From positions 468,621-532,620 of the forward strand of contig JAPKYS010000023.1 in NCBI GenBank assembly GCA_026394195.1: 64,000 nucleotides of DNA, read 5' to 3'. Both the position numbers and the translations under genes were made by a program. A model generated the notes under the pieces. That model ran no database searches, was not told where the DNA came from, and saw nothing but the letters and a program-made list of their open reading frames with translations. Each line of letters starts with the position of its first letter. Positions within the stretch are counted from its first letter, which is position 1. Below, piece after piece: positions 1,454 through 6,644 of the stretch. Origin of the DNA: a bacterium. GTDB lineage: Bacteria > Electryoneota > B3-LCP.

Positions 1454-3661
1454 TTAATTCTGCTGAAGCGACAGTGATATTCGCCACTCCCGCAGGGGTG
1501 TCGGAGCAGCATCGACAATGCGATAGGATTGATTGAATAGATTGGTTACGTCGAAACGGCAAGTCAATATCACCTGCTTTCGGTTCAGTGAGAAATCCTG
1601 CCATAGCCCGAAATCCCAAACCTGGTATGGTGATAAGGATTTGGTATTGGCTTCATTGGTAAACCTGCGGCTGACCCAGCGCGCCGTTGCCGTGAGATGA
1701 AGGTACCTGAGGTTCTGCTCCAAGGTAAAAACGGTGTTGTTTACCGGCCGGTAGGGCAATAATCTGCCGTCGGTGTTCGGCTCGTTTGACTGATTGATCG
1801 CATGCATCCAGCGGTGAGTCAGAAAGATATTGTGGGCCCAGTCGCCTTTTCCCAATTGATATTTCCAGATATACTCGATTCCAAAAATACGAGCTTTGCT
1901 TAAATTCAATGGTTTCCACCGATTGTCGAAATCAAGGCGCCAGTAGATCAGGTCCCAAATTTTCCGATCAAAATAGCTGACGCCGAATTCTGCAGACTTG
2001 TATCCCAGAGATGCTGCGATTTCACGATTCTCGGCTCTTTCAGGCTTCAAGTTGGGGTTCCCTTGCGCTTGCAGATCTTCCTGCCAGAATAATGAGTTAA
2101 AAGACGGCAGCCGAAAAGCGCCAGCAGATTCACCGCGCAGCGCAGCCCAGAAGATCTTTCCAGTTTTGACCTCAACCCCAAATCGAGGATAAATAAACAC
2201 TTGCCCGCCGCTGTAGAGATCCGTGCGCACACCGCCGAAGAGACCGGTGTTCACGGGTAGATTCAACTCTTGCAATGGGTTTCCCTGCGCCTGAAAATAA
2301 CCGAATTCATGCAATCGCTCAGCATAACCACCCAAAAGATCAGGTGACCAGAGTCGCTCCAGTCTCGCTCCCGTGCCGAAATTGAGATTCGTCCGTGATT
2401 CGCCCCCCCGACTCCAATCCAGAGAACCGCTGTAAACTTCACCTCGCAAGCTGGAGTTTTTATAAAGCAATGGATACTGTGAACCGTAATCAGTGATACT
2501 ATTCAGACGATAACTCTCACCATGAAGAGTCACTCGAGGCCGGTACCAATTCTCAGCGCCCTTTAGTGAGACATTAAATTCCTGATGATCAGTGGTGGTG
2601 GTGGATTCGTGGACAATTTCAGGCAGAGGCAGATAGTCGGGGTTCTGTCTGCTGGACATGTTTCTGCGATAACTTAGTTCAAGCACGCCCGGTGGATTCA
2701 ATTTAAGGGTCAGGTAATCACGTTGATATTCAGCGTTACTCCTGATCAAGATCTCACCAATGCTGCGCGTGAACAACTCCAAACCATCGTCGGGGACCAC
2801 TCGATACGGATATTTGCCGGTTCCTTCCTGATGCTCGTACATGCTCAGGAATCGCCAATTGGAAACATTCCTGCCGAGGAGAATGCTTCCTGTCTTGTCT
2901 CCATAGTCGGAGTATCCTGTCTTGACCGTCATCCGGTTTCGACCCGGATAAAGAGTAATAATATTTATCACACCTCCAATCGCTTGAGCACTCAGGCTTG
3001 ATGGAGCCTGGGGATAGACTTCGATTTGTTGGATTTCCGACAATGATACCTGTGACAGATCCGCCGTACCATCGCCTGACTCGTTGATGGGGCGCCCGTC
3101 GACTAACACTAAAACCTGGTCGCTGTTGCTGCCGCGCAGGGTTACGCTGCGCTTCCCACCCGGAGATCCATCCGAAGTAATGGTCGCCAGACCATTCTCT
3201 TCGAGGATTTTTCCCAAATCGCTGGTTCCGGTACGGGTGAGAACGTTTCGTCCCAATACGGTGCCGCCGGAAAGATACCCTGCTGAAGGCAGCGCCTTAG
3301 TTTCCACGGTCGTCTCGTCATCCATTTCCAGCACGATAGGAGACAATCGGAACTCCAGGGAAAGTGGGGTATCCGCAGCAAGCAAAACGACTCGACGGGT
3401 GATGGTTTTGTAGCCGATATGCGTTATTTTTAAATCGCAGCCACCCATCGGCAGATTATAAAAATAAAAACGCCCTTCTGCATCGGCTGCAACGCCGAAG
3501 GGCGAACCGTCGATCACGACGTCTGCGCCGGGAAGAGGCAACCCGGTTCGATCATCAAGCACCAGTCCGGAGAGATTTAACAGATTCTGGGCAGCGGCGC
3601 TACAGGCAAAGGCGAGTGCCACACCGATGAATACCAACAATGATTTCATGCGATACGTCAT
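1454..3661 (-). CDS. TonB-dependent outer membrane receptor with an N-terminal carboxypeptidase-regulatory-like domain
   Basis: Signal peptide followed by a CarbopepD-like beta-sandwich (GLVLDDRTGLPLPGADVVIDGS...), then plug-domain motifs (VTLRG, VLVDGRP, IEVYPQAPSSL...AIGGVINIIT) and a 22-strand barrel length. Confidence 0.9.
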   Translation of the reverse strand: MTYRMKSLLVFIGVALAFACSAAAQNLLNLSGLVLDDRTGLPLPGADVVIDGSPFGVAADAEGRFYFYNLPMGGCDLKITHIGYKTITRRVVLLAADTPLSLEFRLSPIVLEMDDETTVETKALPSAGYLSGGTVLGRNVLTRTGTSDLGKILEENGLATITSDGSPGGKRSVTLRGSNSDQVLVLVDGRPINESGDGTADLSQVSLSEIQQIEVYPQAPSSLSAQAIGGVINIITLYPGRNRMTVKTGYSDYGDKTGSILLGRNVSNWRFLSMYEHQEGTGKYPYRVVPDDGLELFTRSIGEILIRSNAEYQRDYLTLKLNPPGVLELSYRRNMSSRQNPDYLPLPEIVHESTTTTDHQEFNVSLKGAENWYRPRVTLHGESYRLNSITDYGSQYPLLYKNSSLRGEVYSGSLDWSRGGESRTNLNFGTGARLERLWSPDLLGGYAERLHEFGYFQAQGNPLQELNLPVNTGLFGGVRTDLYSGGQVFIYPRFGVEVKTGKIFWAALRGESAGAFRLPSFNSLFWQEDLQAQGNPNLKPERAENREIAASLGYKSAEFGVSYFDRKIWDLIYWRLDFDNRWKPLNLSKARIFGIEYIWKYQLGKGDWAHNIFLTHRWMHAINQSNEPNTDGRLLPYRPVNNTVFTLEQNLRYLHLTATARWVSRRFTNEANTKSLSPYQVWDFGLWQDFSLNRKQVILTCRFDVTNLFNQSYRIVDAAPTPLREWRISLSLQQN

Positions 3662-3680: not shown

Positions 3681-5540
3681 TCAATTGGTAAAGTTCCAGG
3701 ATACTCCCCATACTTCCTCCTTGTGCATCATGGTGAATCCTGGTAAGAGTTCATAGTTTCGATCCAGGATATTGTTGACACCCCAGAAAATCTGCACACC
3801 GTACAATCTGGCGCTGATCCTCGCCGATAAGACGAAATCGTTAGGATGCGCCTCCCATCCTCCGGGCACCGGCAGCCAACGTTGTCCCCAGAAATCCCCC
3901 CAGACCTTGAAGCGCAAATCGAGATGGTTTTGGAACGCAGGTTGTCGGTACTGCGTCCAAACGTGCCAGATCACTTCCGGGAAAATTCTCTGTTCTCCCG
4001 AATGAAGCGGCAGATATGAACCTGTCCCTCCGATTTCGATTTGATCTGAAGGTTTTAATCCGACCGAACCTAAAATCCCTTTGGAATCCAGCGAATTGGA
4101 ATTAATCGACCGGATGACATTGCCGTCGACCACCCAGGATATCTGATCCTCTACTCGATAGTGCGCAACGGCAAGATTGCAATCGACGAATCGAGACTTA
4201 ATTTCGCCGCCGAACGAAGCATTGGAATAAGTTTCATTTTTCAAGCTGTGCGTACCCTGTACGTCGAGGCTGGGGTATTGGAAGAAAACGGGGCTATAGG
4301 GCCAATAGTGATCGCTGTGTGTGTAGTCGGCGGACGCTTCCAATCGGGAAGGATTTTGCTGGTGTTGGGATGCCGCTAAAAATAACCTGATCCCTTGATA
4401 GACAGTGAAATCCGTTCGCACGCCCAGATGGCGAGCCGGTGTGAAATCGTCTGATAAATCCAACCCCAAAAAGGTCTGAACGTCCAGAATATCCGAAGCT
4501 CTCCAGACCAAAAAGTTGCTCAGACCGCCGAAGGACGTCGTAGACCAGTTTTGCGATTTCAGACGCCAGCGCGCCAGAGCAGCCTGCAACTTGAGTTCAC
4601 CATCAAACCTGGTTCGACCATATGGGCTTTGCGTGATGACACCCAGCTCTTCCCAGAGATCTTCGCCATTGCTGCCATAGGTATCAATCTGTTGCACGCC
4701 GTAGCCGCGCACAGCATGGGATCGCCAATGCAGCACAGCATCGGTCTCATAGCGTTCGCGCTTGTAGCTTGCAGTCTTGAAGGAAACCTGGGCATTCCTC
4801 CGGTTCTGAGTGACACCCCACCACCCCCAGACCCGGTTTGAATTTTCACTCATCCTGATGCTGTCATGCCAAACGACTTCAGCGCGAAGATTGAGTCCGT
4901 AACCTGCGCTGTGGTACTGTCTCCCGCCATACGTGGATACCTCTCCCCCACCATTCAAGCCAACAGCCGGCGTAATTTTCTCCGCCAGATCGAAATCAAT
5001 ATTTCCCAGTCCGTAGTACCCATCCCGTGCGCCAACATGACTCGATGGGGGTGAATTCTGCAACTCTTTTAATACCACGTCCATCTTCGCACCCGGCGCT
5101 TGAATCGCAAAAGGCTGAAAAATTATATTCGAGAGCGAATGAGGTGGTACCCACCCCAACTCAGGTGATCCTAAAAGAAAATCCCGCAACTCTCTACCCT
5201 TAAAATTGATGCTTAAAACGTCCGGCGACCAACCAAAAAACAAAGCGCGATCCGGTTGAGCATATCCTGCTTGATCCAAGGGGTAGAATCCGGGCATGAC
5301 TCTGATCAGATCGCCGAATTCCTCATAGTCGAAATCAGCGATTTCATCGACGTCAAGTCCAAGCCGAAAAGGTGTCGAATCATTTACGGAGTTGATCAGC
5401 GTACTTTGTGAGCTGTCGATCATGGTGGAATCAGGAATACTTGACTCTAAAATTTGTGAACTGGCTATAACAGCCTGGAAACACAAGAGCGCCAGACACC
5501 AGATTGTACAGTGATCGGGTGTGAATTTGGGATATTTCAT
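3681..5540 (-). CDS. Hypothetical secreted / outer-membrane-associated protein (619 aa)
   Basis: Signal peptide (MKYPKFTPDHCTIWCLALLCFQAVIASSQ) and beta-rich, Trp/Tyr/Gly-rich composition. It sits between the BtuM-like gene and the TonB-dependent receptor in an apparently co-transcribed unit. The start overlaps the upstream gene by 4 nt. Confidence 0.5.
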   Translation of the reverse strand: MKYPKFTPDHCTIWCLALLCFQAVIASSQILESSIPDSTMIDSSQSTLINSVNDSTPFRLGLDVDEIADFDYEEFGDLIRVMPGFYPLDQAGYAQPDRALFFGWSPDVLSINFKGRELRDFLLGSPELGWVPPHSLSNIIFQPFAIQAPGAKMDVVLKELQNSPPSSHVGARDGYYGLGNIDFDLAEKITPAVGLNGGGEVSTYGGRQYHSAGYGLNLRAEVVWHDSIRMSENSNRVWGWWGVTQNRRNAQVSFKTASYKRERYETDAVLHWRSHAVRGYGVQQIDTYGSNGEDLWEELGVITQSPYGRTRFDGELKLQAALARWRLKSQNWSTTSFGGLSNFLVWRASDILDVQTFLGLDLSDDFTPARHLGVRTDFTVYQGIRLFLAASQHQQNPSRLEASADYTHSDHYWPYSPVFFQYPSLDVQGTHSLKNETYSNASFGGEIKSRFVDCNLAVAHYRVEDQISWVVDGNVIRSINSNSLDSKGILGSVGLKPSDQIEIGGTGSYLPLHSGEQRIFPEVIWHVWTQYRQPAFQNHLDLRFKVWGDFWGQRWLPVPGGWEAHPNDFVLSARISARLYGVQIFWGVNNILDRNYELLPGFTMMHKEEVWGVSWNFTN

Positions 5541-6082
5541 GACACGCTCCAGCTTTTGATCCGATTCAGGAAAATGGGTATGATCATGGCAAAGATCATC
5601 GCGTTTGTTGTTATATGCATGGCTGCGAAGGGTATCCCCAGGATCAGAGTAAGCCGGGTCTGTTCCGCGCTGAATCCGGCTGAAATCGGGAAGGAAAGAT
5701 TGGTAAGGAGATCGAAAATGGTGGTCAGAAACGCTCCGAGCGCTCCTAAAAAGAAATGGTAATACCAGGATCCGGATGAGAAATATCTGATTGTGGTGAT
5801 TTTAGAGGCGATTAAACCTCCACAGAAGCCTGTCAGGGTCATGGAGAGCGCCTGTGCGATCAGAAGCGGCGGAGGCGGAAATCCCATCGGGTTGAAGGTC
5901 GAATAGATGGTCTCAGCGACACAGCCGATAATGGAGCCATACAACGGTCCCATGAGTATGCCTGAGAAGAAAATTCCGGCGGTGATCATCTCCAGATTGG
6001 GCACGGGCAGGAATAGATATCCGAGGACCACACAGGTCGCGGTCAACAGCGCGGCGCGAGTTATTTTGTGATGTCTTTTCAA
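5537..6082 (-). CDS. ECF-transporter S-component-like small membrane protein, putative cobalamin transporter (BtuM/CbrT-like)
   Basis: 181 aa with about 5-6 transmembrane helices and a conserved-looking Cys in the GCVAET motif. It lies directly downstream of a cobalamin riboswitch. The start is TTG at 6080-6082. Confidence 0.55.
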   Translation of the reverse strand: MKRHHKITRAALLTATCVVLGYLFLPVPNLEMITAGIFFSGILMGPLYGSIIGCVAETIYSTFNPMGFPPPPLLIAQALSMTLTGFCGGLIASKITTIRYFSSGSWYYHFFLGALGAFLTTIFDLLTNLSFPISAGFSAEQTRLTLILGIPFAAMHITTNAMIFAMIIPIFLNRIKSWSVS

Positions 6083-6087
6083 GATTT

Positions 6088-6285
6088 CTGCAAAAAGAAA
6101 AGGAGCCGAGCAGGCTCCTGAGAGTAGTTCTTCTTAGAACGAACAGAAGAACGTTCTTAGCGCCTTCCCGCGAAGGCTCTCGATTTCCCGTCAGGTGTCT
6201 GGCTCATGCTCCCGAGGAGCAATCACAGTTGCGGGGCAGCGTCGGAATTACACCGTCTTCCCTGATAGTTTCACGGGGAAGTAAT
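6088..6285 (-). promoter_or_regulatory. Cobalamin (B12) riboswitch with an intrinsic-terminator expression platform
   Basis: The minus strand reads cttccccgtgaaactatcaGGGAAgacGGTGtAAtTCCgacgctgCCCCGCAACTGTgattgc...GAGCCAGACACCTGAC (B12 box). It ends in the terminator hairpin ggagcctgctcggctcc plus ttttcttttt, immediately 5' of the 5537-6082 CDS. Confidence 0.8.
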
Positions 6286-6296
6286 TTTAACGAATT

Positions 6297-6644
6297 CTAA
6301 CGGTTGGTCTTCTCCTTGATTCTGGCGGCTTTGCCATGGAGATCACTCAGATAATACAGCTTGGCGCGGCGTACTTTTCCACGTCGTAGCGTCTCGATTT
6401 GGGCAATCCGAGGTGAATGCAACGGGAAGATGCGTTCCACGCCGACTCCGGCAGAAATCTTTCGAACTGTGAACATTTCGTTGATCCCAGCCCCACTCCG
6501 CTGCAAGACGGTCCCCTGGAAGACCTGGATGCGCTCCTTGTCCCCTTCGATGACGCGTACGTGAACTTTGATGGTATCCCCAGCTTTGAATTCAGGTAAG
6601 TCAGTCTTCAATTGCGGAGAAGTAGATAAATGTAGTTCCCGCAT
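6297..6644 (-). CDS. rplS: 50S ribosomal protein L19
   Basis: 115 aa with conserved L19 sequence ([22 protein letters not shown]...). It lies in the conserved rpsP-rimM-trmD-rplS cluster. Confidence 0.95.

Follow-up and report, generated by a model that had tools for sequence, protein, structure and literature searches.

What does an exported protein that family models fail to recognise do between an inner-membrane permease and a TonB-dependent receptor, in a unit that starts with a cobalamin riboswitch? The question is raised by a locus within a 64,000-nucleotide stretch (hereafter the window) of contig JAPKYS010000023.1 from the bacterial assembly GCA_026394195.1, where the gene at 3681..5540 on the minus strand (ATG start) encodes a 619-residue protein that we refer to as the target. 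According to the original prediction, made from the sequence alone, it was an unknown protein and a candidate B12-binding accessory, a functional analogue of the surface proteins BtuG and BtuH yet unrelated to them. Homology and predicted fold point elsewhere: the target appears to be a very divergent BtuB-like TonB-dependent transporter, and neither a new fold nor a BtuG/BtuH analogue.

The gene itself had been described correctly. Its ATG shares four nucleotides, ATGA (5537..5540, minus strand; as GTGTCATGAAA), with the TGA of the upstream gene, an overlap by which the two genes are translationally coupled, and 19 nt separate its stop from the ATG (3661) of the gene for a 735-residue TonB-dependent receptor, a gap in which a search for a terminator-like site found none. 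The target is a real gene, with orthologues of 42-52 % identity in 7 other metagenome proteins and in 6 loci from metagenome-assembled genomes (MAGs) and with an intact reading frame in all loci retrieved. The alignment of these orthologues has more than 100 invariant positions, which suggests that they are under purifying selection. The proposed signal peptide was also recovered: the N-terminus is signal-peptide-like, in that MKYPKF is followed by a hydrophobic core (residues 10-26) and a predicted Sec cleavage site between VIA and SS (residues 1-26; 5463..5540, minus strand; from hydropathy, with the cleavage site placed by eye), and in the alignment all full-length orthologues have hydrophobic N-termini. 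The composition is indeed rich in Trp, Tyr and Gly (W 3.7 %, Y 4.0 %, G 8.7 %). A lipoprotein reading was considered and rejected, as 'LALLC' is no lipobox, its Cys is not conserved in the orthologue alignment and the signal peptide is of the SPase-I type.

Why the protein had looked unfamiliar became clear from the homology searches. Taken alone, the target gave no match at E<=1 to Pfam and NCBIfam, and phmmer against the PDB returned noise only (isopropylmalate dehydrogenase, E 1.5). Close homologues are rare: 8 were found among 5.8 billion clustered proteins, and 185,579 species genomes yielded 6 loci, which go by the names candidate division LCP-89, Calditrichaeota or 'bacterium'. Eight orthologues (alignment A1; 42-52 % identical to the window protein) were combined into a profile that, run against 1.84 billion representatives, retrieved 319 proteins with E<=1e-3 and 125 with E<=1e-10, each standing for a cluster at 50 % identity. 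One of these relatives, P0016 (family profile E 2e-40), carries recognised receptor domains, Pfam Plug (5e-17) and the TonB_dep_Rec barrel (2e-15), and its gene occupies the same genomic slot as the target gene: rplS, cobalamin riboswitch (RF00174), energy-coupling factor S-component (ECF-S) gene, P0016 and a receptor with a CarboxypepD domain. By BLASTP, residues 62-191 of the window protein match P0016 in the region of its Plug match (residues 20-119) with E 4e-15, and residues 373-617 match its C-terminal barrel with E 6e-16. Two further relatives, P0159 and P0160, carry both PF07715 and PF00593. Homology of the target to recognised TonB-dependent transporters was thus found by way of P0016. 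The profile of a 139-sequence alignment (A4, used for both profile and model) then aligned end to end with Escherichia coli BtuB, profile positions 29-609 against BtuB 4-585, which with E 8e-48 is the best PDB match, followed by BtuB1 of Bacteroides thetaiotaomicron (E 4.5e-45) and Cir. The description as an unknown protein and unrelated analogue of BtuG/BtuH did not survive these results; the name that NCBI gives to the exact target sequence is already 'TonB-dependent receptor'. Since no NCBIfam model matches, we name the protein BtuB-like and not a BtuB equivalog.

Structure prediction, which had been suggested as a check for likeness to the BtuG propeller, gave a plug and a barrel and no propeller. 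An AlphaFold run with 8 sequences was discarded (predicted local distance difference test score, pLDDT, of 35.8) in favour of an AF2 run with the 139 sequences, which reached a pLDDT of 91.2 and a predicted TM-score (pTM) of 0.87. The model contains a signal helix (residues 8-30), a disordered segment (33-52, pLDDT <50), a plug or hatch domain (residues ~60-175; 5016..5363, minus strand; based on the BLASTP match to P0016 and the model, with boundaries read from the secondary-structure string) and a beta-barrel (residues ~179-618; 3687..5006, minus strand) of 22 long strands, a count that is our reading of the DSSP string. In a Foldseek search against the PDB the top 50 matches were all TonB-dependent transporters, the best being E. 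coli BtuB (3m8b/1nqe; E 2e-24, target TM-score 0.82-0.83, root-mean-square deviation 3.1-4.1 Å), followed by PirA, PfeA, Cir, FepA and B. thetaiotaomicron BtuB1. It is therefore almost certain, as far as a predicted model can tell, that the target has the fold of a TonB-dependent transporter, and since E. coli BtuB is the best match by fold as well as by profile, we read it as a BtuB-like transporter and not as an analogue of BtuG/BtuH. The structural alignment with E. coli BtuB has about 11 % identity, at which a mapping of the BtuB contact residues onto the target is unreliable.

The idea of a novel secreted or surface-exposed B12 binder, unrelated to BtuG/BtuH, that hands B12 to the downstream receptor has to be judged against this fold. 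It drew on an exported protein without a family model match, encoded under a riboswitch and next to a receptor gene, and of this the export and the B12-linked unit stand. The accessory role does not: the confidently modelled structure is a plug and barrel rather than a propeller or soluble domain, the protein is homologous to Pfam-positive receptors, and it has neither a lipobox nor a conserved N-terminal Cys, so that we regard an accessory binder as very improbable. BtuG and BtuH are defined by a lipobox Cys and by a beta-propeller, in the case of BtuG, or another soluble, surface-exposed fold. Nor is the target a generic porin or outer-membrane protein unrelated to ligand capture, because TonB-dependent transporters are ligand-capturing receptors.

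A TonB-dependent transporter should present a TonB box ahead of its plug, and a candidate was found in the disordered N-terminal segment (5373..5435, minus strand; from pLDDT, motif and profile alignment), which contains three DS motifs that are non-canonical as TonB boxes: DSTMI (37-41), DSSQS (42-46) and DSTPF (52-56). The 139-sequence profile places the DS motif on the TonB box of BtuB, PDTLVVTA, and a (P/D/E/A/Q)D(S/T) motif precedes the plug in 81 of the 139 relatives, often in tandem (e.g. IDSLALDSLGLDSLALDSLAQDTL in P0028); the DS motifs may accordingly be equivalents of the TonB box. In P0028, P0116, P0036, P0023, P0033 and P0153 up to ~6 tandem DS(L/T)xx pentapeptides precede the plug (e.g. 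DSLALDSLGLDSLALDSLAQDTL), and residues 37-56 of the window protein (nt 5373-5432) are their counterpart; these repeats look like multiplied TonB boxes. Within the barrel, two receptor-like motifs were noticed by eye, NPSRLE (396-401) and QGTHSLKNE (428-436), the second of which hhalign aligned with GNPNLKPE of the neighbouring 735-residue receptor.

To which ligand does the locus point? The target gene was said to lie in a riboswitch-controlled unit, and this holds: a cobalamin riboswitch aptamer (RF00174; 6173..6307, minus strand; 47.1 bits against a gathering threshold of 31.5, E 1e-8) lies upstream of the ECF-S gene, and a terminator-like hairpin, AGGAGCC-TGCTC-GGCTCCT with a T-run (6101-6119, in an element placed at 6091..6119, minus strand), lies just before the ECF-S start and is, from its position, probably the expression platform. 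Riboswitch with terminator, together with the pairing to a vitamin-type S-component, place the target gene in a B12-transport context. In every locus with upstream DNA the gene order is ffh, rpsP, KH, rimM, trmD, rplS, [riboswitch], ECF-S, target and receptor. Co-occurrence with the riboswitch, which had been proposed as a check, was observed widely: RF00174 directly precedes the gene for ECF-S, whether separate or fused, in the window and in 13 related loci (L001, L002, L003, L005 to L009, L010, L011, L013, L014 and L017), the exceptions being L016 and L018. The association of the target with B12 regulation is thus strong and inherited with the locus, and the protein most likely handles a corrinoid.

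The riboswitch is placed remarkably close to the preceding ribosomal protein gene. The first ~10 nt of the aptamer overlap the end of the rplS open reading frame (ORF; 6297-6644, minus strand, from the ORF list; overlap at window 6297-6307), and an equally close arrangement recurs in L001-L003, L011, L013, L014 and L017, with the aptamer beginning at the rplS stop codon or a few bases from it at 4994/4997 (L001), 5249/5251 (L002), 5257/5256 (L003), 5074/5078 (L011) and 4246/4258 (L017). As the aptamer starts in the last rplS codons and leaves no room for a promoter, transcription probably continues from rplS; a scan for sigma-70 promoters is uninformative if the lineage uses another promoter type. 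The rpsP-rimM-trmD-rplS operon may then extend at its 3' end into the B12-uptake genes under the control of the riboswitch, whose terminator would at the same time be the conditional terminator of that operon. A side observation concerns L011:5254-6000 (likewise L013:749-1494), where ~750 nt without a convincing ORF of >=40 residues lie between the aptamer and the start of a fused gene, which is unusually long for an expression platform.

The upstream partner (5537..6082, minus strand, TTG start) is an inner-membrane protein of 181 residues that matches PF12822 (E 1e-10) and PF07155 (E 3e-6), i.e. an ECF S-component, with orthologues that are 54-63 % identical. The sole PDB match of its family profile, a weak one (E 0.0023), is the 182-residue 'Membrane protein' chain of ECF-CbrT (6FNP), which we take to be CbrT, the B12-specific S-component. 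The partner also gave a very weak match to CbiM (E 0.08). CbiM proteins start with a metal-binding Met-His N-terminus; a reading of the partner as CbiM (cobalt transporter) was rated unlikely, as its family's N-termini are not Met-His. It had also been called BtuM-like, which we could not uphold beyond the S-component assignment. In BtuM the cobalt ligand is Cys80 of loop 3 (PMC6072759). The sole invariant Cys of the window ECF-S family is C17, near the N-terminus, inspection by eye, without alignment to BtuM, found no conserved counterpart of the loop-3 Cys, and the BtuM structure is absent from the PDB matches of the family profile; on these comparisons the gene is not demonstrably BtuM-like. 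Without its ECF module, CbrT failed to sustain the growth of an E. coli test strain (PMC5997447). Neither an ECF energising module nor TonB/ExbBD was met in a scan of ten mid-sized ORFs from other parts of the window, all of which proved to be housekeeping genes.

A number of observations weigh against the assignment as a corrinoid-importing, BtuB-like transporter and were considered together. The curated models for plug (PF07715), barrel (PF00593) and BtuB (TIGR01779, PRK10641) all miss the window protein, although a hit to PF07715 and PF00593 is a means of detection and not a structural definition, and the profile of the 8 close orthologues (A1) found nothing in the PDB at E<=10 and missed every receptor. 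Because of these misses, the target is assigned to the family by transitive homology and by a model whose input alignment also contained receptors of a more typical kind. The motifs of the plug are degenerate, with FFG...FKG in the window protein against LRG...VDG in P0016 (the usual RG becoming FG and DG becoming KG). The TonB box is non-canonical, and the chain ends in ...WGVSWNFTN, with F-T-N instead of an aromatic residue. A C-terminal aromatic residue, which acts as an assembly signal, is typical of the TonB-dependent transporter superfamily and not strictly defining for it; in the target family the chain runs on past the aromatic residue by one or two polar ones, with F-x-(N/H) in the close orthologues and mostly FWD or FWE in more distant relatives.

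The remaining opposing points come from the loci. The riboswitch association is a single evolutionary observation, followed to a divergence of about 17 % identity, and not many independent ones, because all loci adjoin rplS. In L016 the ~600 nt of sequence available ahead of the ECF-S gene gave no riboswitch match; one (112 bits) lies at 3070-3261, where it separates the target-like gene from that of the second receptor. L018 has neither riboswitch nor second receptor: the pair of ECF-S and target-like genes (L018:3890-6303) starts 94 nt after rplS and is followed by a Ppx-GppA gene, which shows that the pair occurs also where B12 regulation and a canonical BtuB-like paralogue are both missing. 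The barrel is therefore the sole outer-membrane transporter of the L018 unit. In the window, finally, a canonical receptor lies next door (1454..3661, minus strand, ATG at 3661; 735 residues with CarboxypepD_reg, Plug and TonB_dep_Rec, i.e. PF13715, PF07715 and PF00593), next to which the role of the target could be redundant or different. Its best NCBIfam match is TonB-B12 with 121 bits, below the 600-bit cutoff, and its profile has BtuB as best PDB match (E 2e-28); judged from these matches it is BtuB-like as well, so that the unit contains two tandem BtuB paralogues.

These points could be accommodated by a protein with the fold of a TonB-dependent transporter and another job, namely the import of cobinamide or other incomplete corrinoids, of a lower ligand or of cobalt, or a role alongside the ECF-S protein or the neighbouring receptor that needs no TonB or involves no transport. 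The degenerate plug motifs, the non-canonical N- and C-termini, the canonical BtuB-like receptor in the same unit, the persistence of the pair without riboswitch in L018 and the CbiM match of the partner, very weak as it is, can all be brought forward for it. We nevertheless consider such a role unlikely, since BtuB itself is the best match by both profile and fold, the N-termini of the ECF-S proteins lack the Met-His of CbiM, the DS motif aligns with the TonB box of BtuB, and the target-like barrel of L018 is the only receptor of its unit.

The extreme divergence from the curated receptor models would also suit a copy of the neighbouring receptor that has lost its function and is decaying. 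BLASTP between the two proteins gave nothing significant, and hhalign of their respective profiles gave a weak match (E 0.005, probability 7 %) that falls on the GNPxLKPE motif; the target is not closer to its neighbour than to other receptors. As, in addition, no retrieved locus shows a broken frame, the close orthologues share more than 100 invariant residues and the target-like gene is kept in L018 where the second receptor is absent, decay is the least probable of the explanations that we considered. We thus hold to the transporter assignment and regard it as likely, on the combined sequence and structural evidence, that the target imports a corrinoid in a TonB-driven manner and works together with the ECF-S protein.

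This partnership recurs throughout the related loci. In every locus with upstream DNA the ECF-S and target-like genes are adjacent, overlapping or fused; in L014, L016, L017 and L018 a hidden Markov model (HMM) of the window-type ECF-S found the orthologue directly upstream of the target-like gene (E 1e-35 to 1e-44), with a TAATG or ATGA junction or a gap of a few bases. The constant core of the locus is the pair of ECF-S and barrel. Among the matches listed, 11 of 150 representatives encode both as a single ORF: nine full-length fusions of 766-868 residues (P0014, P0015, P0017, P0020, P0022, P0025, P0030, P0052 and P0111) and two that are N-terminally truncated (P0021 and P0034). The ECF-S HMM matched the N-termini of ten with E 1e-27 to 5e-46 and that of the truncated P0021 with 3e-8, while the rest of each fusion, after the ECF-S part, matched the target profile. 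P0159 and P0160 combine PF12822, PF07715 and PF00593 in one protein according to the precomputed Pfam annotation, and the name of P0052 at the Joint Genome Institute (JGI) reads 'outer membrane cobalamin receptor/uncharacterized membrane protein'. The fused genes at L010:4184-6661, L011:6001-8304 and L013:1495-3798 occupy the slot after rplS and riboswitch, ahead of the CarboxypepD receptor. The fusions are not assembly artefacts, since P0015 occurs on 9 contigs and the cluster of P0111 has 40 members, those named being mostly MAGs of candidate division KSB1 (e.g. RKY80562.1, RKY88658.1, RKY86160.1, RKY92782.1), with 1 labelled Bacteroidota and 1 unclassified. In a crude neighbour-joining tree without support values the fused proteins fall in at least three clades, mixed with unfused ones, which is suggestive of repeated fusion or fission events. 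Fusions of this kind constitute Rosetta-stone evidence for a joint function of the two parts.

How could one polypeptide serve two membranes? In all 11 fusions the ECF-S part ends in a helix after which come Arg/Lys, a hydrophobic stretch of 12-20 residues and, in most, a small-x-small site (e.g. RKLVPVMVLASLLILLSSSSMA before QES and RLTPARSIIIAIALLAVANQSLRA before QN), so that the segment resembles a signal peptide within the chain. The six helices of an S-component leave both its termini in the cytoplasm, and the topology is therefore right for export of the fused barrel. In P0015, P0021 and P0022 ~20 residues separate the internal site from the plug, too short a distance to span the periplasm, because of which cleavage is the parsimonious reading. 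A literature search for fusions of S-components to TonB-dependent proteins found no description; co-localisation of btuM and btuB has been reported, without fusion (PMC6072759). We tentatively propose, as a possibility that we neither favour nor dismiss, that ECF-S and barrel form an obligate two-membrane module for vitamin uptake, made in some relatives as a polyprotein (six helices, internal signal peptide, plug and barrel) that is split by signal peptidase. The window holds the unfused, ATGA-coupled state of the module.

Taken together, uptake could proceed as follows. At low B12 the riboswitch terminator would not form and transcription would run on, probably from rplS. The ECF-S permease and the barrel would be translated in a coupled fashion, after which the barrel, its signal peptide removed, would be exported and assembled in the outer membrane, where it would bind a corrinoid at the cell surface and release it into the periplasm with TonB energy. 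The S-component would then take over the corrinoid and carry it across the inner membrane, and the second BtuB-like receptor would provide a parallel route through the outer membrane, perhaps for other corrinoids. BtuB paralogues of Bacteroides differ in their corrinoid preference.

Beyond the second receptor the loci diverge. In several of them its gene is followed by one for a secreted protein of 350-450 residues, L010:8938-10230 (DUF5074), L011:10964-12016 (a faint SGL match), L005:10024-11310 and L014:9011-10351, which we suspect to be propeller-like and candidate BtuG-type surface binders of B12. The window has no such gene; a TPR/ImpE-like ORF of 268 residues (479-1285) takes the position after the 735-residue receptor, and in L006 a 272-residue ORF with a similar N-terminal sequence (L006:10260-11078) is found at the corresponding place.

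For the annotation of the window the outcome is that a hypothetical or novel accessory protein becomes a recognisable, if predicted, outer-membrane transporter for B12, and that the receptor models of Pfam and NCBIfam miss a subfamily of 319 clusters with MAG labels LCP-89, KSB1, Calditrichaeota and Bacteroidota. The combination of a BtuB-like barrel with an ECF-S permease, with no BtuF/BtuCD in the unit, would be a third wiring of B12 uptake in diderms. The unexpected finding lies at the family level, outside the window, in the apparently obligate pairing of ECF-S and barrel and in their fused forms. If the fusion is indeed made and cleaved, one gene would supply the proteins for both membranes, in fixed 1:1 production and possibly with B12 passed on directly, no periplasmic binding protein being involved; it would join a transporter of the inner membrane to a TonB-dependent one of the outer membrane, a combination for which we found no description in the literature, and would be useful for studying the targeting of outer-membrane proteins and the stoichiometric coupling of two transport steps.

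Various known systems share part of this organisation. E. coli BtuB (1NQE/1NQH/3M8B) works with BtuCDF, and btuB is under the control of a cobalamin riboswitch. The target resembles it in size class (about 590 mature residues), in the combination of plug and barrel and in an N-terminal PDS motif of its family that aligns with the TonB box PDT; it differs by having up to three DS motifs instead of one canonical TonB box, by its degenerate plug motifs and the C-terminus ...WNFTN, and by its tie to an ECF-S gene instead of BtuCDF. The B12 loci of Bacteroides are likewise riboswitch-controlled, and Bacteroidota receptors commonly carry an N-terminal carboxypeptidase-regulatory-like extension. With BtuB1-3 and BtuG of B. 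thetaiotaomicron (8BLW, 8P97/8P98) the locus shares an FCB-group background, several BtuB paralogues and, in the 735-residue receptor of the window, the N-terminal carboxypeptidase-regulatory-like domain; unlike those systems, the target lacks an N-terminal extension and has an ECF-S permease as its partner, and the unit of the window contains no gene for a BtuG-like propeller lipoprotein. For the fused relatives a parallel is offered by Bradyrhizobium FbcH (cytochrome b/c1), a polyprotein that is split by an internal signal peptide: both combine a polytopic inner-membrane domain with an exported one and have a signal-peptide-like segment in between, although in the fused relatives the exported part is a putative outer-membrane barrel, and the window itself is unfused. 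The btuM-btuB arrangement of Proteobacteria (Thiobacillus denitrificans BtuM, PMC6072759) likewise has a solitary ECF-S-type B12 permease next to an outer-membrane BtuB, and the proposed sequence of a TonB-dependent step and an S-component step, without BtuF/BtuCD, is the same. The window system is set apart from it by an S-component with no conserved counterpart (by eye) of the loop-3 Cys and no match to the BtuM structure, by its occurrence in LCP-89, KSB1 and Calditrichaeota-labelled MAGs, and by a much tighter coupling of the two genes, through the ATGA overlap or through fusion.

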